Assembly (NCBI GenBank): GCA_963707215.1
Contig: CAVPPB010000003.1
Coordinates: 544,001 to 608,000, forward strand
DNA from: an uncultured Chloroflexia bacterium
GTDB taxonomy: Bacteria > Chloroflexota > Limnocylindria > Limnocylindrales > CSP1-4
DNA: 64,000 nt
Direction of reading: 5' to 3'
Under the pieces are notes generated by a model. The model had not been told where the DNA came from, made no database searches, and was given only the letters and a program-made list of their open reading frames with translations. Position numbers and translations under genes: made by a program. Positions 2,846 through 15,323 of this stretch are shown here, one piece after another; positions within the stretch are counted from its first letter, which is position 1, and every line of letters starts with the position of its first letter.

Positions 2846-3024
2846 CGCGTCCAGTCTCGTCCACGGCCCGGAGACGGGACCCTGGCCGGCGGGCAGCCGA
2901 TGGGGCCGCCGAGGCTGCCCGAACGGGCCAGGCCGGTCGCCCTCTCGCCCGTCCGGCAGGTCCTTGTCGTGCCTCGGCGGCGGTGGGAGCCTCGACCCGT
3001 ACGCACACCGCAAGGAGTCGTCAC

Positions 3025-4541
3025 ATGCCGAACTACCTGTCACCCGGCGTCTACGTGGAGGAGGTGCAGGCCGGATCACGACCCATCGAGGGTGTCGGGA
3101 CCGCGGTCGCGGCATTCGTCGGCCTCGCCGAGCAGGGCCCCTTCAACGAGCCGCGCCTCGTCACCAACTGGGGTCAGTTCACCGGCACCTTCGGCGAGTT
3201 CATCGAGGGGTCGTACCTCGCCCACGCTGTCTACGGGTACTTCCTCAACGGCGGTGGGGCGTGCTACGTCGTCCGCGTCGGCGCTGACGGCTCGATGCCC
3301 GTCGCGCGAGCGGAGCTGCCTTCGGACAAGGATCCAGCGACCGCCGCCATGCGGGTCGTCGCCCTGGAGCCCGGGCCCGCGGGCAACGACATCTCGGTCG
3401 AGGTGGCCGAGGCGAGCGAACCCGGCGAGGGCGTCTTCAAGCTCATCGTCAAGCAGGACGGCAAGCCCGTCGAGACATTCGACAACGTGACGACCGGCCG
3501 CGGCAAGCAGAGCGTCGCCACTGTCGTCAAGACCCAGTCCAAGCTGATCACGCTCGAGGAGGTCGGCAGCGTGGCCCCGGCGGTCGGCGCCAAGATGGCC
3601 CTCGCCGGGGGAGCGACGAGCGTTCCGGCCACGGTCAGCCCCGACGACTACGTCGGCAACGCCGCCGACCGGACCGGCTTCGCCGGCCTCGAGGCGATCG
3701 ACGAGGTCACGATGCTCTGCGTCCCCGACCTCATGGCCGTCTACGAGCAGGGCGGGATCGACCTGGAAGGTGTCCAGGCGGTCCAGATGGCCACGATCGC
3801 GCACTGCGAGCTGATGGGCGACCGGGTCGCCATCCTCGATGCCCCGCCCGGCCTGAACGCCATGCAGATCAAGGAGTGGCGCGAGGAGAAGGCCGGCTAC
3901 GACTCGAAGTACGCCGCCCTGTACTGGCCGTGGATCAAGGTCTTCGATCCGCTCGCTGGACAGGCCCGGTTCGTCCCGCCGTCGGGCCACATGGCCGGGA
4001 TCTGGGCGCGCAGCGATGACGATCGGGGCGTCCACAAGGCCCCGGCGAACGAGGCCGTCCGCGGCGCGATCTCACTGGAGCTCCAGATCACGAAGAGCGA
4101 GCACGACCAGCTCAACCCATCCGGGATCAACGCGATCCGATCCTTCCCCGGCCGCGGCATCCGCGTCTGGGGTGCCCGGACGCTGTCGTCCGACCCGGCC
4201 TGGCGCTACCTCAATGTGCGGCGGCTCTTCAACTACGTCGAGGAGTCCGATCCTCGAGGGGACGCAGTGGGTCGTCTTCGAGCCCAACGACCTGCGCCTC
4301 TGGGAACGGGTCAAGCGGACCATAAACGCATTCCTGCTCGGCGTGTGGCGGGATGGGGCGCTCTTCGGGGCCACGCCCAACGAAGCGTTCTACGTCAAGT
4401 GCGACGCCGAGACCAACCCACCCGACGTCGGTCGACCGCGGTCAGCTCGTCGTCGAGGTCGGGATCGCTCCGGTCAAGCCGGCCGAGTTCGTGATCTTCC
4501 GGATCGCGCAGTTCTCGGGCGGGGCCGCGCTGAGCGAGTAG
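3025..4541 (+). CDS. Contractile tail sheath protein, interrupted by two +1 frameshifts (about 4247 and about 4421-4431)
   Basis: MPNYLSPGVYVEEV..GSRPIEGVGT, YAALYWPW, PPSGHMAG, RGVHKAPAN, IRVWGARTLS, WRYLNVRRL. Continues in shifted frames as ILEGTQWVVFEPND and VEVGIAPVKPAEFVIFRI. AAGGAG RBS. Removing 2 bases gives a 504-aa ORF. Confidence 0.92.
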
Positions 4542-4581
4542 TCACGACGGTCGAGCCGACCCAGGGAAGGAGAGGCGGTCC

Positions 4582-5037
4582 ATGGCACGAGGTCTTCCGA
4601 GCCTGCCGAACGATGCGATCGGCGGCGCCAACTTCGCCCTCGAATGCGACGGCATCGAGATCAGCCAGTTCCAGGAGGTGACGGGCATCTCGCAGGAGCG
4701 AGAGGTCACCACGGTCAAAGAGAACGGGCCCGACGGCCAGCTCCTCATCAAGCAGCTGCCCGGACCACCCAAGCCGCCGACGATCACCCTCAAGCGGGCG
4801 GCCAACATGGACAAGGCGATCGCCGACTGGTACGAGGAGGCGCGGACCAAGATCGGATCGGCCCGGCGCAACGGCTCGGTCATCGCCTACGACTTCGAGT
4901 ACAACGAGGTGGCCCGCTGGAACTTCCTCGCCGGGTGGCCATCGAAGCTCGAGATCACCGGTCTCAAGGCCGCGGCCAATGAGCCCGCCATCGAGACGCT
5001 GACCATCACGGCGGAGTACATCGAGCGGGTGAAGTGA
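4582..5037 (+). CDS. Major tail tube protein (T4 gp19/Afp1-like)
   Basis: FQEVTGIS, ITLKRA, RRNGSVIAYD...VARWNFLAGWPSK...AIETLTI; follows the sheath gene; GGAAGGAGAGG RBS. Confidence 0.92.
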   Translation: MARGLPSLPNDAIGGANFALECDGIEISQFQEVTGISQEREVTTVKENGPDGQLLIKQLPGPPKPPTITLKRAANMDKAIADWYEEARTKIGSARRNGSVIAYDFEYNEVARWNFLAGWPSKLEITGLKAAANEPAIETLTITAEYIERVK

Positions 5038-5038
5038 C

Positions 5039-5446
5039 ATGCTCACGGCCGATGCTCCGGCCGCCGCGACGGCCGGGCTGACGACCGAGTTCCCGTTCGT
5101 CCTGCCGCGGGGCTTCGTCGATGACGAGGGGATCGTCCATCGGGACGGCACCATGCGTCTCGCGACCGCTCGCGACGAGATCCTGCCGCAGCGGGACCGC
5201 CGGGTCCAGGAGAACTCGGCCTACCTGACGGTCCTGCTGCTGTCCCGGGTCGTGACCCGGCTCGGCTCGGTCACCCAAGTGACCCCGGCCACGATCGAGA
5301 ACCTGTTCGCGTCGGACCTGGCCTTCCTCCAGGACCTCTATCGGCGCATCAACGCGGAGGGAACGAGCCAGGCGGCTGTCACCTGCCCGTCCTGCAAGCA
5401 CGAGTTCGCGATCGACCTGGCGGGTGGTCCGCCGGGGGGATCGTGA
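5039..5446 (+). CDS. Tail assembly chaperone-like protein (P2 gpE/lambda gpG position)
   Basis: TEFPFVLPRGFVD..G..HRDGTMRLATARDEI...LLSRVVTRLG...IENLFASDLAFLQDLYRRIN and a C-terminal CPSC; directly after the tube gene. Confidence 0.8.
   Translation: MLTADAPAAATAGLTTEFPFVLPRGFVDDEGIVHRDGTMRLATARDEILPQRDRRVQENSAYLTVLLLSRVVTRLGSVTQVTPATIENLFASDLAFLQDLYRRINAEGTSQAAVTCPSCKHEFAIDLAGGPPGGS
5434..5440 (+). promoter_or_regulatory. Candidate -1 programmed ribosomal frameshift heptamer G_GGG_GGA
   Basis: CCG GGG GGA TCG TGA in frame 0; the -1 frame reads GGG GGG ATC GTG ACG TAC into the 5443 ORF with no stop. Fits X_XXY_YYZ phasing. Confidence 0.5.
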
Positions 5447-5598
5447 CGTACGCGCCTGAGCGGCTCCTCGAGGAGGTCGCGTACGTCGCCTACCACCTGC
5501 ACTGGCCCCTCGAGGAGCTCCTCGACCTGGAGCACCCGGACCGCCGCCGCTTCATCGAGGAGATCGACCGGCTGAACCGACGAGCCGAGGAGGACTGA
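5443..5598 (+). CDS. Small CIS protein (DUF6760-like; resembles P2 GpE' segment), 51 aa
   Basis: Hand translation MTYAPERLLEEVAYVAYHLHWPLEELLDLEHPDRRRFIEEIDRLNRRAEED*. GTGA overlap with the upstream stop, in the -1 frame. Below the ORF-track size cutoff. Confidence 0.8.
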   Translation: MTYAPERLLEEVAYVAYHLHWPLEELLDLEHPDRRRFIEEIDRLNRRAEED

Positions 5599-5606
5599 TC
5601 GAGGCC

Positions 5607-7526
5607 ATGGACCTGGCTGGGATCTGGCATCGGCTCGTCGGCGGCGAGACCCCGCCTGCCGCCGCGGTCGAGCGACCGGCGGGCGACTCTTGGCGCCGCC
5701 TCGAGCCCATCCGGCCGGTGAGCCGACCGCCGCAGCTCGTCGGGCAGCGCCGCCTCCATGCCTCCGACCTGCCGTCGGTGCCGCCGCTCCGGACGGCGCT
5801 CCAGCCGCTCGGCCACGCCCGCTCGCTGGAGGTCCCCCCGGGCCTCGCCGAGGGGCTGGCCCGGCCAGCGGTCCTCGAGCCGGGCGAGCCGCTGCCCGCC
5901 TCGGTCGGATCCGCCGAGCCCTCGCGGGCCGTGGCAGCCGGGCACGCGACCCGCTGGTCGAGCGCCGTGGGGTCGACTGCCGAGCCCGTCGCAACGGCAG
6001 AGCCGTCGGTCGGACCAGAGGACCGGCCCGGACCCCCGGTCGGCGACGGCCCCGCCGCCCTCACGGTCGCCTCGGCTGGGTCGGTCCGCGAGCTGGAACG
6101 ACCGGTCGGCTTCATCGGCCATCCGAGGACGCCTGCGCCCGTCGCGGCGGCGTCGGCCGGGTCCGCCGCCGGCGCCCCCGCCGACCCGGAGGTGATCCCG
6201 GTCGCGGGGGCTGCGACGTCCGCCGACACGCGCGCTGACGCGTCCGTGCCGTCGCCGGACCCGGCAGCGGCTGCGGCGGCGCCGACCACCCGGGGCCGAG
6301 CTGGCCAGGCGAGCGTGCGAGCGGCCACTGCCGGAGCCGCGACCGTCCAGGAGAACCGGTCCGTGACCGAGCCGGCCAGCGCTGCGAAACGGGCTGCCCC
6401 CGGAGCGTCGGGAGCGCAGCCCGGCCCGACCGTCCGGCCCCGCCGGATCCGCATCGGGCTGCCGCTCGGGACCTCGCTCGAGTCGGTCGCAGCGACGGCT
6501 GCCTCGCCCGAGCCGGTCGCCCGCGCCACCGGTGGCGCCGTCCAGCGGCGGGCCGACCTGCCGGAGGTGCCCAGCCTCCGATGGACCGATCCGGGGCGGA
6601 CCATCGCCCCGCCGGAGCTCGAGGTCGTCCGGGGCCGCCTGCTGACAGTCGGCCCCGGCGTCATCAGGCCGCTCGTCGGCGGCCTCACCCCGACGATCGA
6701 CGGCCCGGCGGGCGGTGCACCGGACGCGGAGGGTGGGGCGCCCGACGAGGCGACCGAGCAGTCTCGTCCGCTCGAGGTCATCGGCATGCGCTTCGATCTC
6801 CCTGGGGTCGAAGGCTCCGCAGACCCGGCGACCGCAGCGGTCCGCCCAGGGGTAGCTGGGTGGTCGACCGGGGCCGGCTCTCGGCCAGCGGCTCTCATCG
6901 CTACCTCGACGTCGCAGACCACCCGACCATCCACCGCTGGCACCGGGCCGTTCGCCGGTGGGCCGGGCCCGACGACCGGCGGTGCCAGCAGCCAGCGGTC
7001 GGCCTCGCCTGGGCCGGACCCGATCAGACCACTCGCGGCGGCCGGGCTCCGGCGCTCGCCGGCCGGCCCAGGGCCGCGCCCGGTCCCGTCAACGACGCCT
7101 TTGGCGCCCCGGTCCCGCGCGAGTTCCGTGCGTGTCGGACCAGCGCTCACGGACCGACACGGGACGGCCTCCGTGCCGCCGGTCTCGGCGGGCAGCGCGC
7201 CCGGGACCGGGTCCCCGAGCGAGGTCACCGCGATCACCGGACAGCGTCGGATCGACGGTCCGATCGGGTCGGTCGAGGGTCACGGCGCAGCGGCGGTCGC
7301 GGACCGGACCACGCCTGTCGAGCCACCGGAGACACCGGTCCAGCGGCGCGACGGAGCGGACGCCGGGACGACGCTCTCGGCCGGCTCGGACGCCGGGCAG
7401 CCCGGCTCGGACAGCGAGCTCGACGCACTGGCCGGACGGCTCTACGAGCGGATGCGGCTGCGGCTGCGGTCGGAGCTCTTGGTGGATCGCGAGCGGGCAG
7501 GCGTCCTCATCGACACGGGGCGGTGA
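5607..7526 (+). CDS. Ala/Pro-rich low-complexity CIS protein in the tape-measure gene position
   Basis: 639-aa ORF between the chaperone genes and tube 2. N-terminal WRRLEPIRP..LQPLGHARS motif and C-terminal helix ELDALAGRLYERMRLRLRSELLVDRERAG. Confidence 0.7.
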   Translation: MDLAGIWHRLVGGETPPAAAVERPAGDSWRRLEPIRPVSRPPQLVGQRRLHASDLPSVPPLRTALQPLGHARSLEVPPGLAEGLARPAVLEPGEPLPASVGSAEPSRAVAAGHATRWSSAVGSTAEPVATAEPSVGPEDRPGPPVGDGPAALTVASAGSVRELERPVGFIGHPRTPAPVAAASAGSAAGAPADPEVIPVAGAATSADTRADASVPSPDPAAAAAAPTTRGRAGQASVRAATAGAATVQENRSVTEPASAAKRAAPGASGAQPGPTVRPRRIRIGLPLGTSLESVAATAASPEPVARATGGAVQRRADLPEVPSLRWTDPGRTIAPPELEVVRGRLLTVGPGVIRPLVGGLTPTIDGPAGGAPDAEGGAPDEATEQSRPLEVIGMRFDLPGVEGSADPATAAVRPGVAGWSTGAGSRPAALIATSTSQTTRPSTAGTGPFAGGPGPTTGGASSQRSASPGPDPIRPLAAAGLRRSPAGPGPRPVPSTTPLAPRSRASSVRVGPALTDRHGTASVPPVSAGSAPGTGSPSEVTAITGQRRIDGPIGSVEGHGAAAVADRTTPVEPPETPVQRRDGADAGTTLSAGSDAGQPGSDSELDALAGRLYERMRLRLRSELLVDRERAGVLIDTGR

Positions 7527-7547
7527 GGGAGGCAGCGGAGGACGACG

Positions 7548-7982
7548 ATGAGCGGGACGGCCGTCTCGACCCGGTTCTTGGTCGAGATCAACGGGACGGA
7601 GGAGGACTGGTCCCTCGGCGAGTGGAACAAGGTCGAGGGGATCGCCGTCGAACGCGACGTCCACGAGCAGCGCGAGGGCGGCCAGAACGACTTCGTCCAC
7701 CGGCTGCCGGGACGGGCCAAGTACCAGAACGTCAAGCTCAGCCGCCCCATCACCCAGGCGACCGCCGACGTGGCCGCCTGGGTGTCGCGGGTCCGAACCA
7801 TCGACCGGGCTACCACCGCCACGATCACCGTGCTCGACTCGGAGGGCGAGGAGGTCACCGCCTGGACGCTCCAGGCCGTCTTCCCGGCCCGATGGACCGG
7901 ACCGACCCTCGAGTCGGGAGCCAACCAGGTGGCCATCGAGGTCCTCGAGCTGGCTCACCACGGCTTCCTGCCGAGCGCCTGA
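7548..7982 (+). CDS. Second tail tube protein (gp19-like, Afp5-type)
   Basis: REGGQNDFVHRLPGRAKYQNVKLSRP...WTLQAVFPARWTGPTL...VAIEVLELAHHGF. Confidence 0.9.
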   Translation: MSGTAVSTRFLVEINGTEEDWSLGEWNKVEGIAVERDVHEQREGGQNDFVHRLPGRAKYQNVKLSRPITQATADVAAWVSRVRTIDRATTATITVLDSEGEEVTAWTLQAVFPARWTGPTLESGANQVAIEVLELAHHGFLPSA

Positions 7983-7985
7983 GCC

Positions 7986-8672
7986 ATGGGCGAGACGGCG
8001 CTCGAGCGCGCGTTCCTCCGGGTCGTCGAGGGTGACGTCCCGGTGACGGAGATCGAGTTCCAGTTCAACCCGGCCGAGTACACGGTCACGAAGAGCTCGA
8101 ACTGGACCCGGCCCCGGATGAAGGGCGGGAAGAAGACGGGCAAGCCGGAGTTCAACGGCTCGAACCCGCAGACACTCCAGATGGAGATCTTCCTTGACCA
8201 GTCAGCCGGCGGCGTGGACGGCGTCCAGGCGGCCGTCGCCACCCTCCTGACCTGGGTCCTCCCCACCCCGTCCTCGGTCGCCAAGAAGAAGCCGCAGCCA
8301 CCGCTCTGCGTCTTCGAGTGGGGGCACAACGTCGCTCTTGTCGGCTTCCGGGCCTATCTCAAGCAGGTCAACGCCAAGTACCTGATGTTCGACCAGGACG
8401 GCAACCCGACCCGGGCGACGGCGACGATCACGCTCGAGGAGGCGCCGGTCGAGCCCGCCAAGCAGAACCCCACGTCGGGCGCGATCCGGGGCCGCCGGAG
8501 CCATCTGCTGATCGAGGGCGAGGATCTCGCCGGGCTGGCCTGGCGCGAGTACGACGACCCGGGGCTGTGGCGCGGCATCGCCGCCTTCAACGGCATCGAC
8601 GACCCACTCCGGGTGCGGCCGGGTACGCGGATCCTCATCCCGACCGCCGACGAAGCCCGGCGGCTGGCGTAG
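7986..8672 (+). CDS. CIS tube initiator with C-terminal LysM-like domain (Afp7-like)
   Basis: FQFNPAEY, FEWG, YLMFDQDGNPTRATATITLEE, QNPTSG, LAGLAWREYDDPGLWRGIAAFNGIDDP. Confidence 0.9.
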   Translation: MGETALERAFLRVVEGDVPVTEIEFQFNPAEYTVTKSSNWTRPRMKGGKKTGKPEFNGSNPQTLQMEIFLDQSAGGVDGVQAAVATLLTWVLPTPSSVAKKKPQPPLCVFEWGHNVALVGFRAYLKQVNAKYLMFDQDGNPTRATATITLEEAPVEPAKQNPTSGAIRGRRSHLLIEGEDLAGLAWREYDDPGLWRGIAAFNGIDDPLRVRPGTRILIPTADEARRLA

Positions 8673-8682
8673 GACGGGCGCG

Positions 8683-10398
8683 ATGACCGAGGCCTTCTCC
8701 CAGCAGCTCGAGGTCGAGATCGACGGCGGGCCGCTCGATCCCGCGGCCGAGGCCCTGCTCGAGGCGGTCGTGACCGACGACAGCACCCACGTCCCCGACA
8801 TGGTCGTGCTGACCTTCCGTGACGTCGAGCGGACCGTCCTCGAAACGGCCCGTATCCGGATCGGCTCGACGATCCGCATCCGGGCGACGCCGATCGGCGG
8901 CTCGGAGCCGATGTCCATCTTCGACGGCGAGGTGACCAGCCTCGAGGGCGAGTACACCGAGGCCGGGACCCTCGCGATCGTCCGCGGCTACGACCCATCG
9001 CATCGGCTCTTCCGGGGCGGCCACACGACCACGTATCTCGGCATGAAGGACTCGGACATCGCCGGCGATGTCGCTCGGCGAGCCGGTCTACGGGTGGGCA
9101 CGATCGACGATTCCGGACCGGTCCACGATCACGTCTCGCAGCACAACCAGACCGACATGGCCTTCCTCCGCGGGCGCGCCGCGGAGATCGGCTTCGAGGT
9201 CGGGGTCCGTGATGGGACGTTCGAGTTCCGGCGGCCGCAGCGCTCGACCGAGGGTCCGGCCGAGGGCGACTTCGAGTCGGACGACCCGCTCCAGCTGGTC
9301 TTCGGCCGAGATCTCCTCGAGTTCCGGCCCCGGGTGACCTCGTCGGGCCAGGTGAGCCGGGTCCAGGTCCGCGGCTGGGATCCCGGCGCCAAGGAGGGCG
9401 TCGTCGGCGAGGCGGATGCGACCACGACCTCGACCGATGTCCGCGACACGCCGGCCGATCTCGCCGCCGTGTTCGGGAACCCGGTCCTCGTGGCCACCGA
9501 GCGACCGCTCCGGACCCAGGCCGCGGTCGATGCTGCCGCCCAAGCCCTGGCCGAGGTCGTCGGCGGCGTCGCCGTCGAGGCCGAGGGCATCGCCCGTGGC
9601 AACCCGCGGATCAAGCCCGACGCGGCGGTCAGCGTCTCGGTCGTCGGCGAGCCGTTTGCCGGCCGCTACCTCGTCACCGCCGCCACCCACCGCTTCGACC
9701 GCCAGGGCTACCGGACGCGGTTCGTCGTCTCGGGCCGCACGGAGCGCTCGCTGCTCGGCCTGACCGGCGGCAACGGCCACGACGGCCACCTCGGTCGGGT
9801 CGAGGGTGTGGTCTGCGCCCTGGTCACCAACAACGACGACCCCGATCGGCTCGGGCGGGTCAAGCTCAAGTTCCCCTGGCTGTCCGACGACTACGAGTCC
9901 GACTGGTCCCGCCTCGCGACGCCGGGCGCCGGCCCCGACTCCGGCGTGACCTTCCTGCCCCAGGTCAACGACGAGGTCCTCGTCGCGTTCGAGCAGGGCG
10001 AGATCCAGCGCCCGTACGTCCTTGGTGGTCTCTGGAATGGCGTGGACAAGCCACGCCTCGGGGACGGGCTCGTGGACAACGGAGCCATCAACCGCCGCGG
10101 GATCGTCTCCCGGCGCGGGCATCGGTTCGTCCTCTTCGACGGCCAGGGCGACTCGGGGATCGCGCTGCTGACGTCAGACGACCGGCTCAGCATCGCCCTC
10201 CACGAGACCGGGACCGAGATCCATGTCCGCTCCGACGGGACGATCCTCATCGAGGGCACCCGCGACATCACGGTCAAGAGCTCGGCCAACGTGAGCGTCG
10301 AGGCGAGCGGGACGCTGACGCTCAAGGGTCAGGGCGGCGTGACCATCACCTCGAGCGGCGTCGTCGACATCGACGGCTCGGTCATCCAGCTGAACTGA
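8683..10398 (+). CDS. VgrG-like hub/spike protein (gp27+gp5, Afp8-like)
   Basis: HVSQHNQTDMAFL, VQVRGWDP, OB-fold VTNNDDPDRLGRVKLKFPW...FLPQVNDEVLVAFEQG..RPYVLGGLWNG, beta-repeat C-terminus ending IQLN. Confidence 0.93.
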   Translation: MTEAFSQQLEVEIDGGPLDPAAEALLEAVVTDDSTHVPDMVVLTFRDVERTVLETARIRIGSTIRIRATPIGGSEPMSIFDGEVTSLEGEYTEAGTLAIVRGYDPSHRLFRGGHTTTYLGMKDSDIAGDVARRAGLRVGTIDDSGPVHDHVSQHNQTDMAFLRGRAAEIGFEVGVRDGTFEFRRPQRSTEGPAEGDFESDDPLQLVFGRDLLEFRPRVTSSGQVSRVQVRGWDPGAKEGVVGEADATTTSTDVRDTPADLAAVFGNPVLVATERPLRTQAAVDAAAQALAEVVGGVAVEAEGIARGNPRIKPDAAVSVSVVGEPFAGRYLVTAATHRFDRQGYRTRFVVSGRTERSLLGLTGGNGHDGHLGRVEGVVCALVTNNDDPDRLGRVKLKFPWLSDDYESDWSRLATPGAGPDSGVTFLPQVNDEVLVAFEQGEIQRPYVLGGLWNGVDKPRLGDGLVDNGAINRRGIVSRRGHRFVLFDGQGDSGIALLTSDDRLSIALHETGTEIHVRSDGTILIEGTRDITVKSSANVSVEASGTLTLKGQGGVTITSSGVVDIDGSVIQLN

Positions 10399-10407
10399 GG
10401 GTCCAAG

Positions 10408-10791
10408 GTGGGTTCGCCGGCGATCGTCATGAACGACCGGATCCAGGGGATGTGCGCCCACCAGATCCCCAACCCCGCCTCGGGCATCCCCCAGCCATCC
10501 GGCCCGTTGCCCTTCAGTGCCCCGGTCACCCTGGGAACCCAGGCGACGGTCCTCGTCGGCGGCAGACCCGCCGCCGTCATGGGCTCGTCGGGACTCAACA
10601 CGCCGCCGCACGTCGGTCTCCACGCCAGCGACCCGTACCTGGCCCCGCCGATGCAGGTCGGACGGATCGTCTCGGGCAGCCCGACGGTCCTGGTCGGCGG
10701 CCAGCCGGCCGCGACCGCCAGCTCGTCGGCGACCTGCTGCGCGACGCCGGGCAGCCTCGTCCCCACGGTCACGACCGTGCTCATCGGCTAG
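10408..10791 (+). CDS. PAAR-like spike tip protein
   Basis: Two TVLVGG(R/Q)PAA repeats and Cys/His residues; directly after VgrG. Confidence 0.85.
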   Translation: MGSPAIVMNDRIQGMCAHQIPNPASGIPQPSGPLPFSAPVTLGTQATVLVGGRPAAVMGSSGLNTPPHVGLHASDPYLAPPMQVGRIVSGSPTVLVGGQPAATASSSATCCATPGSLVPTVTTVLIG

Positions 10792-10803
10792 GAGGTGAAG
10801 GAC

Positions 10804-11202
10804 GTGAGCAGCGAGTTCGTCGGCTCGGGCTGGGGCTTCCCGGTCGATGTCGACGCCACTGGCGGGGTCCGCCTCGTCAGCGAGCAGGTCGAGATCGAGC
10901 AGAGCATCCGGCTCATCCTGTCCACCGCCCCCGGCGAGCGACCGATGCGGCCGGAGTTCGGCTGCTCCATCCACGACCACGTCTTCGACAGCGTCGACGG
11001 TCGGACGACCGGGCGCGTCGTCTACGCCGTCCGCGAAGCCCTCCGCCGCTGGGAGCCCCGGATCGACGTCCTCGACATCTCGGTCGGTCGCCATCCGACC
11101 GAGGCGGACGCCGTCCTGCTCGACATCCGCTACACGATCAGCGACTCGAACGATCCCCGGAACCTCGTGTTCCCCTTCTACATCATCCCGGGCGAGGGCT
11201 GA
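10804..11202 (+). CDS. Baseplate wedge gp25/GPW-family protein (Afp9-like)
   Basis: GSGWGFP, IEQSIRLILSTAPGERPMRPEFGC, WEPRI, NLVFPFY. AGGAGG RBS favours the GTG at 10804. Confidence 0.93.
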   Translation: MSSEFVGSGWGFPVDVDATGGVRLVSEQVEIEQSIRLILSTAPGERPMRPEFGCSIHDHVFDSVDGRTTGRVVYAVREALRRWEPRIDVLDISVGRHPTEADAVLLDIRYTISDSNDPRNLVFPFYIIPGEG

Positions 11203-11232
11203 CCCCGCCGGCCACAAGGGAGCGCAGCAACG

Positions 11233-13182
11233 ATGGCCCTGCCCGTCCCGAACCTCGACGATCGCCGCTTCCAGGACCTCGTCGACGACGCCAAGCGGCT
11301 GATCGCCCAGCGCTGCCCCGAGTGGACCGACCACAACGTCCACGACCCCGGCGTCACGCTGGTCGAGCTGTTCGCCTTCATGACCGACCAGCTGCTGTAC
11401 CGGCTGAACCGGGTCCCCGATCGTCAGTACGTCGCCTTCCTCGACCTGCTCGGCGTGCGCCTGTTCCCGCCGACCGCCGCCGGGACCGCGCTGACCTTCT
11501 GGCTGTCGGCCCCGCAGCCGGACACGATCCGGATCCCGACCGGGACCCAGGCGGCCACGATCCGGACGGAGACCGACGAGGCGATCATCTTCGAGACGAC
11601 CGACGACCTCGTGATCCCGAGGACCGAGCTGCGGGTGGTCCGCTCGAGCCTCGACGGCAAGGCCTACCGCGACCATGCCGAGGCGCTCGCTCGCCGCACG
11701 CCCTTCTACTGCTTCGACGACGTGCCGGCACCGGGCAACGCCCTGTACGTCGGCCTGTCCGAGCCGGCCCCGTCGAGCGCGGTGCTGCTCCGCTTCAGCT
11801 GTGACATCGAGGGCGTCGGCGTCGATCCCGAGCGACCGCCGCTGGCCTGGGAGGCCTGGGACGGCGACGAGTGGGTGGCCTGTGAGCTGGAGCGAGATGA
11901 GACCGGCGGGCTCAACCGCGACGGCGACGTCGTGCTCCACGTGCCGCGCGGCCACGCCGCCTCGATGGTCGACCGCGAGCGGGCCGGCTGGATCCGGGCC
12001 CGGGTCGTCGAGGCCGAGGCGGATCAGCCCACCTACAGCGCCTCGCCGTCGATCGGCGGGCTGACCGCGACGACGATCGGCGGGACGGTGACGGCGGTGA
12101 ACGCCCAGCTCGTCGACCTCGACGAGTTGGGCAGCTCCGAGGGGGTGCCCGGGCAGCGGTTCGAGGTCCGGCGTCGCCCGATCGTGCCGGCCGGCAGGCC
12201 CCCGGTCCTCGAGGTCGTCGGCGACGACGGCGAGCCCGTCGAGTGGATCCTCGTCGAGGACTTCGCCTCGTCGGGTCCGACCGATCCACACTTCGCCCTC
12301 GACCCGGTGACCGGCGAGGTCCGCCTGGGACCGGCCGTCCGCGATGTCGACGGCTCGCTCGTCCACTACGGCGCCGTCCCAGCGAAGAACGCGGTGCTGC
12401 GCCTCCGCGGCTACCGGAGCGGCGGCGGGGAGCGCGGCAACGTCGCCGCACGGGCGATCAGCGTCCTGCGCTCGTCGATCCCCTACGTCAGCCGGGTCGA
12501 GAACCGGCGGGCCGCGACGGGCGGCGTCGACGGCGAGCGGATCGAGAACGCGAAGGCCCGGGGACCGATGCTCCTGCGGACCCGCGGCCGGGCGGTGACA
12601 GCGGACGACTTCGAGCACCTCGCCAGGAGCGCCGCTCCCGAAGTGGCCCGGGTCAAGGCGGTGCCGGCCGCCGACCCGGCCGAGGCCGGGGCCGTCCGGG
12701 TGCTGGTCGTGCCGGCGGTCTCCGGCCCGGACGGCCGGCTGGCCTTCGAGCAGCTGGTCCCGCCTGAATCGACGATGCAGCGGATCACCGACCGCCTCGA
12801 GGGGGCCCGGGTCATCGGGACCAGGGTGGTGGTCGAGCCGCCTGTCTACCGCGGCGTGACCGTGGTCGCCAAGCTACGGGCCCGGCCGCGGACCAACCCG
12901 ACCCGCCTGTCCGATCATGCCCTCGAGACTCTCTACCGCTACCTGCACCCGATCGAGGGAGGCCCGGACGGCGACGGCTGGCCGTTCGGTCGGCCCGTCT
13001 CGGCGGCCGAGCTGCACGCGGTGCTGCAGCGGCTACGTGGGACGGAGCTCGTTGACGACCTGCGGCTCTTCGGCGCGGATCCGGTGACGGGGCAGCGCGG
13101 CCAGGCCACGACGCGCCTAGAGCTCGAGCCGACGGCGCTGGTCTTCTCGTACGAGCACCAGGTGCTCGTGGAGGCCGGTTGA
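11233..13182 (+). CDS. Baseplate J-like assembly protein (Afp11-like)
   Basis: MALPVPNLDDRRFQDLVDDAK..CPEWTDHNVHDPGVTL, YRSGGGERGNV, ATGGVDGE, RAVTADDFE, GWPFGR. Confidence 0.93.
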   Translation: MALPVPNLDDRRFQDLVDDAKRLIAQRCPEWTDHNVHDPGVTLVELFAFMTDQLLYRLNRVPDRQYVAFLDLLGVRLFPPTAAGTALTFWLSAPQPDTIRIPTGTQAATIRTETDEAIIFETTDDLVIPRTELRVVRSSLDGKAYRDHAEALARRTPFYCFDDVPAPGNALYVGLSEPAPSSAVLLRFSCDIEGVGVDPERPPLAWEAWDGDEWVACELERDETGGLNRDGDVVLHVPRGHAASMVDRERAGWIRARVVEAEADQPTYSASPSIGGLTATTIGGTVTAVNAQLVDLDELGSSEGVPGQRFEVRRRPIVPAGRPPVLEVVGDDGEPVEWILVEDFASSGPTDPHFALDPVTGEVRLGPAVRDVDGSLVHYGAVPAKNAVLRLRGYRSGGGERGNVAARAISVLRSSIPYVSRVENRRAATGGVDGERIENAKARGPMLLRTRGRAVTADDFEHLARSAAPEVARVKAVPAADPAEAGAVRVLVVPAVSGPDGRLAFEQLVPPESTMQRITDRLEGARVIGTRVVVEPPVYRGVTVVAKLRARPRTNPTRLSDHALETLYRYLHPIEGGPDGDGWPFGRPVSAAELHAVLQRLRGTELVDDLRLFGADPVTGQRGQATTRLELEPTALVFSYEHQVLVEAG

Positions 13183-13183
13183 G

Positions 13184-13831
13184 ATGCGCGGGATGGTGCC
13201 AGGGCTCATCAATCCCCATCCCCTGGGCCGGGGTCTCCCGGGCGTCTACCAGGAAGAGGATCCGTTCACCATGCGGATGACCGAGGCGCTGGACGAGGTG
13301 CTCGCCCCGGTGGTCTCGACGCTCGACAATCTGCCCGCGTACTTCGATCCGCATCTTGCGCCGGAGGACTTCGTGGGATGGCTGGCTGGGTGGGTGGCCT
13401 TCGAGCTCGACGAGACCTGGCCGATCGCGACGCGCCGAGAGGCGGTGGCCCGCGCGGTCGACCTCCTGCAACGTCGCGGCACGGCCGGTGGGCTGGCCGA
13501 CGAGATCACCCTCGTCACCGGTGGCGAGGCCGAGATCGTCGAGAACGGGGGGACCGCCTGGTCCCTCGACCCTGGCAGCGAGATGGTCGGCTCCCGGAAG
13601 CCGTCGCTTCTCGTGCGGGTACGGGTCAAGGATGCGGCCGCGGTCGATGCCGAGCGCCTCGACCGCATCGTCCGGGCGGCCAAGCCCGCCCACGTACCGC
13701 ACCGGGTCGAGGTCATCGGCGGCGATGCCGAGCCGAAGGCCAGGCGCAAGCCGACACCGGACGCGTCGTCGGGCCAGCATGCCAAGGCCGAGCCGACAGC
13801 TCCTCCGCCAGAGGAGGGTGCCGATGGCTGA
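13184..13831 (+). CDS. Phage tail protein I-like baseplate protein
   Basis: LPGVYQE..F....DEVLAP..STLDNL.AYFDP.LAPEDF..WLAGWV, RRGTAGGL, AKPAH. Confidence 0.88.
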   Translation: MRGMVPGLINPHPLGRGLPGVYQEEDPFTMRMTEALDEVLAPVVSTLDNLPAYFDPHLAPEDFVGWLAGWVAFELDETWPIATRREAVARAVDLLQRRGTAGGLADEITLVTGGEAEIVENGGTAWSLDPGSEMVGSRKPSLLVRVRVKDAAAVDAERLDRIVRAAKPAHVPHRVEVIGGDAEPKARRKPTPDASSGQHAKAEPTAPPPEEGADG

Positions 13832-13964: not shown

Positions 13965-15323
13965 GTGGAGCCAGCCGAGTTGATCGTCTGCGGGAACTGC
14001 GGCCATCGCAACGAGGAGTCCGATGCATTCTGCGGGAGCTGCGGCCAGTTCCTGGAGTGGGTCGGGCGACGTGAAGCTGCCGGCGGGGAGCTGACCGGCC
14101 CGGAGCCGGAGCCGGAGCTAGCGCCCGAGCCGGAGCCTGAACCGGAGCCGGAGCCGGAGCCGGAGCTAGCGCCCGAGCCGGAGCCCGCGCCCGCGCCCGA
14201 GCCGGAGCCTGAACCGGTGCCGGTGCCGGAGCCGGAGCCTGAACCGGAGCCGGAGCCGGAGCCGGAGCCTGAACCGGAGCCGGAGCCGGAGCCGGAGTCG
14301 GCTCTCCGACGCGGGCGGCCCGCCACGGCCGTCGCTATCACGCGTGGTCCAGAGCTTGCGCCCTCGACGGCGCCCCCACCTCCGCCGGACCGCGAGCCTG
14401 GTCTGGTCCGCGAGACGTCCGTCCAGCCGGGCCCTGTCCAGCCCGCCGCCCGTCGCCCCGAGCCGGCGGCCCAGGCGCCGGATCAGCCGGAAGCCCGCAA
14501 GCCGACCGCAGCCGTCGCTGCCCCACCGCGGCCCCGCCCATCGGCGGCGGCGCCCCGCCGCGAGGCGAAGCCCGGCGACCTCATCTGCTCTTCGTGCGCC
14601 GAGCCGAACGACCCGAGCCGCAAGTTCTGCCGGCGCTGCGGGACCAGCCTCGCGACCGCGATCGTCGAGAAGCCGCTGCCGTGGTGGCGGCGGATCTTCC
14701 GTCGCCAGCCGAAGGTGTACGCGGCCGGCGAGCGGACTGGTCGGATGCAGCGCGGCGAACGTCGGTCGGGTCGCCTCGCCACGAGGTCGATCGTCGGGCT
14801 GCTCTTCATCGTCCTGGTCGGTGCCGGCGTCATCGGATTCGTCGCCGTCCCGTCGTTCCGTCAGATGGTCACTGACGCTGTGTCGCCCGCCCTCGATCAG
14901 GTGCGCCGGATCGTGGCGCCTGAGCTCGCGATCGAGCGCCCCGTCTCCGTGGCCAGCGACGACCAGCTGCCCGACCATCCCGTCAGCCTGCTCTTCGACT
15001 CGTTCACGAACACCGATTGGCGGGCAGCTGGCAGCGCTCCGACCGTGGTGGTCGAGTTCGACGAACCGGTCGATCTCGGTGCGATCATCGTCCACTCAGG
15101 CTCATCCGACGGCTTCGTGGACCTTCGCCGACCCGCCGTCTTGACCATCGTGTTGCCCGATGGCGCGACCACCTCTCTGCAGCTCGAGGACGTCCATGAT
15201 CCGCAACGGTTCGACCTGTCGGGCTCGGCGGTCGACCGGCTGGAGATCCGGGTCAGCGAGACGAATGGACCCGCCGGCGCGGCCGTTGCGCTGTCCGAGA
15301 TCGAGTTGTTCGCGCAGCGCTGA
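13965..15323 (+). CDS. Bitopic membrane protein with two Zn ribbons, (PE)n spacer, one TM helix and C-terminal beta-sandwich domain (CisA-like CIS membrane adaptor)
   Basis: CGNC..FCGSCG and [18 protein letters not shown], hydrophobic [21 protein letters not shown]-terminal [10 protein letters not shown]...VALSEIELF. Last gene of the CIS operon. Confidence 0.75.
14100..14297 (+). repeat. Coding hexamer tandem repeat (CCGGAG)n encoding a Pro-Glu tract
   Basis: About 200 bp of CCGGAG units with recurring variants CTAGCG and CCTGAA, indicating higher-order duplication. Confidence 0.95.

Follow-up and report, generated by a model that had tools for sequence, protein, structure and literature searches.

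The described systems closest to the one considered here are the tail assembly chaperones that long-tailed phages make in two forms by conserved −1 ribosomal frameshifting. In lambda, where the pair is gpG/gpGT, the frameshift heptamer is G_GGA_AAG. The record of P2, as read here, has the gene order FII, E, E+E', T, in which FII is the tube gene and T the tape measure gene, and the slippery site T_TTT_TTG. For the actinophages, the available text of the PRFect report gives GGGGGAA in all ~1000 of its 'fivetwo' motifs, which are annotated chaperone frameshifts, and explains them by tRNA-Glu re-pairing from GAA to GGA through G:U (PMC10885494); GGGGGAA has likewise been proposed as the frameshift heptamer of corynephage phi16, according to the part of that report that bears on it (PMC5506516). 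The subject of this analysis is a stretch of 64,000 nucleotides from an uncultured Chloroflexia bacterium (assembly GCA_963707215.1, contig CAVPPB010000003.1, positions 544,001 to 608,000; hereafter the window, meaning the whole stretch), whose + strand carries, at 2983–13831, the module of a contractile injection system (CIS). Comparison of sequences indicates that this chromosomal CIS has very probably kept programmed −1 ribosomal frameshifting, conserved among homologous loci and of the type known from lambda G/GT and P2 E/E+E', at the end of its tail-assembly-chaperone-like gene. Cellular operons that are not mobile seldom show conserved −1 frameshifting; the textbook case is dnaX. The recoding signal is real and conserved, known in kind and new, apparently undescribed, in its setting: text searches at the level of titles and abstracts found no published report of such a frameshift in contractile injection systems, and no literature was found under the name DUF6760, the family to which the −1 frame extension belongs.

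The zero frame of the chaperone-like gene terminates CCG GGG GGA TCG TGA. Its G-run occupies 5434–5439 and is followed by A at 5440, so that 5434–5440 reads G_GGG_GGA in the zero-frame phase X_XXY_YYZ; the window heptamer is thus a strict slippery site of this type. From the heptamer the −1 frame reads GGG GGG ATC GTG ACG TAC and stays open until TGA 5596–5598, and the start of the open reading frame (ORF) of 51 amino acids (aa) listed there overlaps the zero-frame stop as GTGA. A fusion of the two frames would have 134 + 52 = 186 aa and the junction ...GGPPGG-IVTYAPER. The sequence-only reading from which this work started had proposed the frameshift, and its coordinates and heptamer phase proved correct when the sequence was re-read; its 186-aa fusion and junction peptide came out the same on recomputation. 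The features at the junction are as follows.

5039–5446, + strand: tail-assembly-chaperone-like gene, zero frame, 135 aa (short product), phrog_508
5434–5440, + strand: slippery heptamer G_GGG_GGA, P site GGG 5435–5437 and A site GGA 5438–5440, read from the sequence
5444–5446, + strand: zero-frame stop TGA, 3 nt past the heptamer
5440–5598, + strand: −1 frame extension, 52 codons plus stop, DUF6760 (PF20546)
5443–5598, + strand: listed 51-aa ORF with GTG start, in the −1 frame, stop at 5596–5598
5443–5489, + strand: predicted stimulatory hairpin, 5' arm 5443–5454 and 3' arm 5478–5489, from a single-sequence fold
5446–5454 / 5478–5486, + strand: conserved core of the hairpin, beginning 5 nt after the heptamer

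In the mechanism proposed here, most ribosomes would reach the stop at 5444–5446 and release the 135-aa protein, and a fraction would pause over G_GGG_GGA at 5434–5440, held there by the hairpin, which starts 5 nt past it. Both tRNAs, the tRNA-Gly in the P site and the one in the A site, would then move back by one base, and the resulting long product, 186 aa in length, would have DUF6760 as its C-terminal domain. If ribosomes behave in this way, DUF6760 would mainly be a C-terminal domain made by recoding, homologous to E' of P2 gpE+E', rather than the product of a gene of its own.

Frame and heptamer at homologous loci

Homologous loci were taken from relatives of the source genome (6), from named genomes of Actinomycetota, Chloroflexota and Dormibacterota and one Verrucomicrobiia bin (80), from IMG/VR (8) and from metagenomes, where a distant alignment was used (80); 30 further loci came from the genus of a Streptomyces locus (L013) and overlap the first set in part. 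The locus searches used alignments A2 and A4, A1 and A3 being too diverse. The invariant Trp of the H-W motif served as the anchor, and removal of duplicates left 168 non-redundant loci, of which 165 are Trp-anchored and three (L019, L038 and L044, all GGGGGAA and without the Trp motif) are anchored on the heptamer itself. The counts leave out a noisy contig with several frame breaks (L005), a duplicate of L002 (L010), a contig that ends at the junction (L125), the window itself (L175) and a mis-anchored locus, L152, which by eye is an ordinary G_GGG_GAA TGA. The chaperone family from which these loci are drawn is large, comprising no fewer than 7,947 clusters when grouped at 90% identity and 1,232 representatives when grouped at 50%; the gene is present in 6 of 41 relatives of the source genome and in 97 of the 201 genomes sampled from the genus of L013. 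PF20546 was not found in any of 14 control genomes.

The frame relation holds throughout. A tblastn match to DUF6760 was obtained in 84 of 85 listed loci and lies in the −1 frame in all 84, and among the 168 non-redundant loci, at which −1 was the only frame that the scripts searched, DUF6760 is found in that frame every time. The sequence-only reading had proposed conservation of the slippery heptamer and the −1 phase among homologues as a test, and the outcome is in its favour: 165 of the 168 loci have an in-phase slippery heptamer, and in 158 it lies at one fixed position. Of these, 155 belong to the 165 Trp-anchored loci, in which the heptamer starts precisely 23 codons ahead of that Trp, and three are the loci anchored on the heptamer. 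The loci span Actinomycetota, Chloroflexota, Dormibacterota and mixed metagenome contigs. Among the Trp-anchored loci, the heptamers at this position are as follows.

GGGGGAA: 103 loci
GGGGGGA: 19 loci
GGGGGGG: 18 loci
GGGGGAG: 12 loci
GGGAAAA: 2 loci
GGAAAAG: 1 locus

Seven loci have their heptamer elsewhere. Three of these are G-run heptamers shifted by 1–3 codons, and the other four, which have no G-run, carry a different canonical XXXYYYZ heptamer 2–5 codons upstream (CCCGGGG in L093, CCCTTTC in L128, TTTTTTA in L135 and AAATTTT in L174). Elsewhere in these genes an in-phase slippery heptamer is seen at just 49 of 19,324 codon positions (0.25%). At the junction, 155 of the 165 Trp-anchored loci have one in the same fixed place, far beyond what chance would give. 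The distance from heptamer to stop varies (0, 3, 6, 9, 15, 21, 36 or 39 nt), that from heptamer to DUF6760 core is fixed. The Streptomyces loci serve as a replicate, with GGGGGAA at the fixed place in 29 of 30, three of which have no start codon for DUF6760.

It could be argued that there is no recoding at all, that G-rich codons are kept because the protein requires Gly-Gly or Gly-Glu, and that the two frames stand as they do through an accident of descent. Protein-level conservation of the C-terminal L/P-G-G/E-S motif speaks for this. However, where the P-site codon encodes Gly it is GGG in 155 of 157 cases, compared with 23.8% of Gly codons elsewhere in the same genes, so that the proposed test of conservation at synonymous sites also comes out in favour of recoding. 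A requirement for these residues would also leave unexplained the replacement heptamers, the missing start codons and the covariation of the hairpins described below, and we regard this explanation as barely tenable.

Hairpins, start codons and competing explanations

When the sequences were split by the codons that follow the heptamer into a 'TYA' group (88, including the window) and an 'S/G-Y-P' group (59), each was found to have a hairpin of its own. In the 'TYA' group columns 10–21 pair with 45–56, with 92.2% of cells paired, 24 double-change cells compared with 2.5 in shuffles, and a covariation score of 0.101 against 0.038 shuffled that none of 500 shuffles reached; slid controls were 11–56% paired. 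In the 'S/G-Y-P' group it is columns 13–25 that pair with 36–48, with 93.1% of cells paired, 32 double-change cells against 12.2 in shuffles, and a covariation score of 0.218 against 0.137 shuffled, again reached by 0 of 500 shuffles. The well-kept stem begins 5 nt past the heptamer in both groups. Codon choice follows the pairing, as the Val codon of the E-E-V motif in the 'S/G-Y-P' group is A-ending in 52 of 59 sequences and so supplies the U-A pair at columns 16/45. A search for an upstream Shine-Dalgarno-like stimulator turned up GGTGG at −11 in 54 of 155 loci but no consistent element. Taken together, this is a probable case of recoding in several phyla, in which nature supplies a series of alternative heptamers and a pair of distinct hairpins.

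A side observation concerns a lower-GC group (alignment A6), in which columns 1–5 can pair with columns 63–67 in 93–100% of sequences. There the G-run and a C/U-rich stretch ~60 nt downstream could enclose the hairpin in a larger predicted structure.

A second explanation for the same fusion is transcriptional slippage, in which RNA polymerase would insert one G in the G-run so that some mRNAs encode the fusion in a single frame. The protein product would be identical, and a homopolymer of 5–7 G has been counted in 155 of the 165 Trp-anchored loci, a figure that takes in every G-led heptamer and becomes 152 without GGGAAAA and GGAAAAG. Yet the runs in GGGAAAA, GGAAAAG, CCCTTTC, AAATTTT and CCCGGGG are only 3–4 bases long and fit tandem tRNA slippage instead, and a conserved hairpin at 5 nt is what would be expected of a ribosomal stimulator. 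The sequencing runs add a weak point on the same side: the evidence consists of Logan contigs, among which the DNA runs X2 and X3 gave only relatives or nothing, and one contig from an RNA library covers 5395–5545 without a gap, although contigs drop rare variants and DNA was possibly present in the library. Polymerase slippage is, in our judgement, very unlikely.

Some of the results weigh against a programmed −1 ribosomal frameshift. The loci are mutually related, so the counts are not independent of one another. G_GGG_GAA is not a strict X_XXY_YYZ site, and its support from phages, in the available text of those reports, is annotation. The hairpins were derived from the same sequences on which they were tested, which favours them in the slid control, and those sequences too are related; taken alone, the hairpin region of the window gives no better fold than shuffled sequence (z −1.05). 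At L201, a Streptomyces locus, a single G is missing and DUF6760 falls in the +1 frame, so that the locus is either misassembled or a mutant. Three loci (L119, L145 and L167) have no heptamer and all have GTG at the junction, in L119 with a GGAGGG Shine-Dalgarno sequence, which suggests that DUF6760 is able to act as a separate chain and that there has been an occasional switch to separate expression. Finally, a start codon is present at the junction in the window and in 101 of the 165 heptamer loci, and a free 51-aa DUF6760 might be made by reinitiation as a second product.

With regard to L201, a protein of the chaperone family, P0136, shares the G-run that is one base shorter, and in both the chaperone frame continues in the third frame (…G-N-R-D-V-R…). 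The homopolymer may have been misassembled, or the slippery run may have undergone a natural on/off mutation.

Because start and stop overlap as GTGA in the window, translational coupling is the obvious rival: two ordinary genes, the first terminating at TGA 5444–5446 and the second reinitiating at GTG 5443 to yield the free 51-aa DUF6760, with the G-run merely a weak Shine-Dalgarno sequence or the code for a needed Gly-Gly. Such coupling would account for the junction start codons just counted and for the GTG kept in all three loci without a heptamer, and GGGGG should be able to pair with the anti-Shine-Dalgarno sequence via G:U. It nevertheless seems unlikely. As many as 64 of the 165 heptamer loci lack any ATG, GTG or TTG in the stretch from the heptamer to the DUF6760 core, and in 38 of those 64 no start codon exists even back to the previous −1 frame stop. 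Where they do occur, start codons track the use of TGA: an overlapping TGA makes the −1 codon GTG (70), CTG (14) or ATG (3), and an overlapping TAA or TAG makes it GTA, CTA, TTA or ATA. Since a start codon appears only with an overlapping TGA, it is the stop codon itself that brings it about, and the junction residue is always hydrophobic/aliphatic, as expected of an internal residue. The distance from heptamer to DUF6760 stays fixed even when the heptamer lies 15–39 nt before the stop, which is too far for the logic of a Shine-Dalgarno sequence or of reinitiation; in the window, conversely, the spacing from G-run to GTG is only 3 nt. Nor would coupling explain why canonical heptamers without G replace the G-run. 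Alongside the frameshift, initiation at GTG 5443 may be an additional route in the window.

Programmed −1 frameshifting, by comparison, is strongly supported, as the sequence-only reading had proposed, and all of the comparative tests suggested there gave favourable results. What the sequences show is the signal with its phase and conservation, the want of start codons at many loci, the covarying hairpins and the family relationships. A weak search for longer proteins that contain DUF6760 returned three, of which one is fused cleanly in frame and in the other two the frame is broken earlier; the near-absence of single-ORF fusions fits selection for both forms. There are consequences for annotation. 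DUF6760 is catalogued as small proteins that stand alone; the real product is probably a fusion, and with about four in ten loci offering no start codon for DUF6760, gene callers must either mis-start it or miss it.

The chaperone, DUF6760 and their phage counterparts

The 135-aa protein had been taken for a tail chaperone in the sequence-only reading, and the PHROG comparison agrees, with a match to phrog_508 'tail assembly chaperone' at E 2.6e-8. No Pfam family matched it; in particular it gives no match to PF10109 Phage_TAC_7, which covers the gpE and Mu gp41 chaperones at a gathering threshold of 25 bits. Sub-threshold matches were seen to Phage_TAC_7 in 8 of 41 family members (best E 0.012) and to Gp41_Mu in 5, and a profile of the chaperone family found nothing among PDB sequences at E <= 1. 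An AlphaFold (AF2) model (pLDDT 77.9) has the HK97 tail assembly chaperone 2ob9 as its top PDB fold match (E 0.086, prob 0.94); in BFVD it matches T4-like 'baseplate hub assembly' proteins (E 1.6e-7 to 1.5e-5) and Mu FS-gp41 (E 6.7e-4). Judged from this model, the chaperone-like gene product would fold like phage tail chaperones. The likeness to Mu gp41/FS-gp41 and to T4-like gp26-like proteins is one of fold, seen between predicted structures with identity of 13–29%.

Other members of the family are built differently. A sister branch (P0158, P0175, P0190, P0192, P0241 and P0244) comprises chaperones without the CxxC segment and without DUF6760, which have instead, within a single ORF, a long acidic linker and a conserved basic-hydrophobic tail (R-R-x-x-I-E-E-V-like); this tail may be an alternative tether for a partner. 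The proteins P0123–P0128, P0131 and P0140, of 210–417 aa, show two or three matched stretches, i.e. tandem duplicated chaperone domains in one ORF.

The DUF6760 of the window matches PF20546 at 47.6 bits (cut-off 27), as do all 46 of 46 relatives above that cut-off, and its model is a three-helix structure with pLDDT 92.2. Its relation to the P2 E' segment, which Pfam models as Phage_P2_GpE (PF06528), had been proposed from a shared hydrophobic-H-W-P motif. The motif is real, since E' as read from AF063097 contains ...VIFHWPPSEL..., and the kinship is upheld by profile comparison: P2 E' aligns with the DUF6760 profile in hhalign (E 6.7e-5, probability 63.8%), and 25 of the 46 members match PF06528, all sub-threshold (gathering threshold 23 bits, best E 0.0022), with the next family matched by only 2 of 46. 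BLASTP of P2 E' against the window DUF6760 gave no alignment. With sub-threshold PF06528 matches and no BLASTP alignment, DUF6760 is best seen as a distant homologue of P2 E' and not as a member of that family by Pfam thresholds. A fold search in BFVD with the DUF6760 model gave no match with E <= 0.001; some tail or tape-measure chaperones among the weak rows are not counted. A complex prediction for tube and DUF6760, both given as alignments, returned a score of 0.00 ('no answer') and is uninformative either way.

How far the likeness extends can be seen from the neighbouring genes. Sheath, tube, spike, PAAR, gp25, Baseplate_J and P2_I stand in a single operon-like row by their Pfam matches, as expected of a CIS.

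2983–4494, + strand: sheath
4582–5037, + strand: tube protein gene (Pfam Phage_T4_gp19, E 1.2e-25), adjoining the chaperone-like gene on its upstream side
5607–7526, + strand: 639-aa protein, rich in Ala/Pro/Gly and mostly of low complexity, placed where phages have their tape measure gene
7548–7982, + strand: second tube protein
7986–8672, + strand: CIS_tube protein
8683–10398, + strand: spike with Phage_base_V
after the spike, + strand: PAAR, gp25, Baseplate_J and Tail_P2_I genes (Pfam matches)

The P2 gpE/gpE+E' system, which also belongs to a contractile-tail module, is the nearest parallel. The CIS order of sheath, tube, chaperone, extension and long gene matches FI-FII-E-E'-T; each system has a short chaperone with a −1 extension of ~52–57 residues, and E' and DUF6760 share their hydrophobic-H-W-P core. 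The differences are that the slippery run is of T in P2 and of G here, that the chaperone here has an extra C-terminal CxxC ribbon-like segment and falls below the Phage_TAC_7 threshold, that the host element is a chromosomal injection system rather than a virus, and that the gene downstream cannot be recognised as a tape measure. The lambda type of heptamer occurs here only as rare variants (GGGAAAA twice, GGAAAAG once at the fixed position); no sequence similarity between gpG/gpGT and this chaperone is in evidence, and the putative binding partners are assigned here by analogy. With the actinophage 'fivetwo' chaperones, as given in the available text, these loci share GGGGGAA, its phase and high-GC hosts (PMC10885494). 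Those are phage genes, however, whereas the chaperone here found no tblastn match among 50,697 phage records.

By analogy with lambda, as set out in the part of the review consulted here (Atkins 2016, PMC5009743), the chaperone part common to both forms would coat or bind the long disordered protein encoded next, the three-helix, E'-like DUF6760 part of the rarer long form would recruit tube subunits, and tube assembly would need both forms in a fixed ratio.

The downstream protein and Streptomyces injection systems

A long ORF follows closely after DUF6760 in the 115 loci examined. In the window this is the 639-aa protein, for which Pfam, NCBIfam and PHROG gave no match and to which no tape measure family matched. 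Its sequence has a conserved N-terminal part of ~90 aa and a conserved C-terminal helix (…LYERMRLRLRSELLVDRER…). Among 60 N-termini of downstream proteins of relatives, 5 have an FHA domain. A Tme-type DUF4157/eCIS_core effector, as in Streptomyces davawensis, was tried as a description of the downstream gene and rejected as a general one, as it fits 1 of the 60. The conserved chaperone pair directly upstream of a long disordered protein offers a testable candidate for the control of length and of tube assembly.

Among structurally characterised machines, the cytoplasmic CIS of Streptomyces (CIS-Sc; Casu 2023, eLife 2025) is of particular interest. The nearest solved chain to the window tube is 8bl4_v (E 3.3e-17), from 8BL4, a model deposited with the Streptomyces CIS paper (Casu 2023); a Streptomyces tube gene that adjoins a chaperone homologue matches the same chain at 184 bits, and nearly half of the genomes sampled from the genus of L013 have the chaperone. 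According to the available text of the Streptomyces papers, a tape measure gene is absent and the particles are uniform in length, and neither a chaperone nor a frameshift is mentioned there (PMC10066040, PMC12237407). It is conceivable, though on balance we would not yet bet on it, that the long disordered protein, together with the chaperone and the extension made by frameshifting, forms the 'missing' length-determining, tube-priming system of Streptomyces-type machines. If this were true, a widespread chromosomal bacterial operon would depend for its correct assembly on a fixed ratio set by ribosomal frameshifting. The same signal would have to stay intact when these machines are engineered as delivery tools.

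Two smaller observations may be added. SCO4251, a 'putative secreted protein', appears in particle preparations in the available text of two reports (PMC2000904, PMC10020575); it is at most a candidate for the chaperone homologue and carries no weight here. In the window, the baseplate genes are directly followed by a gene at 13965–15323 for a 452-aa protein with two zinc-ribbon/DZR matches and a Pro-rich repeat region.

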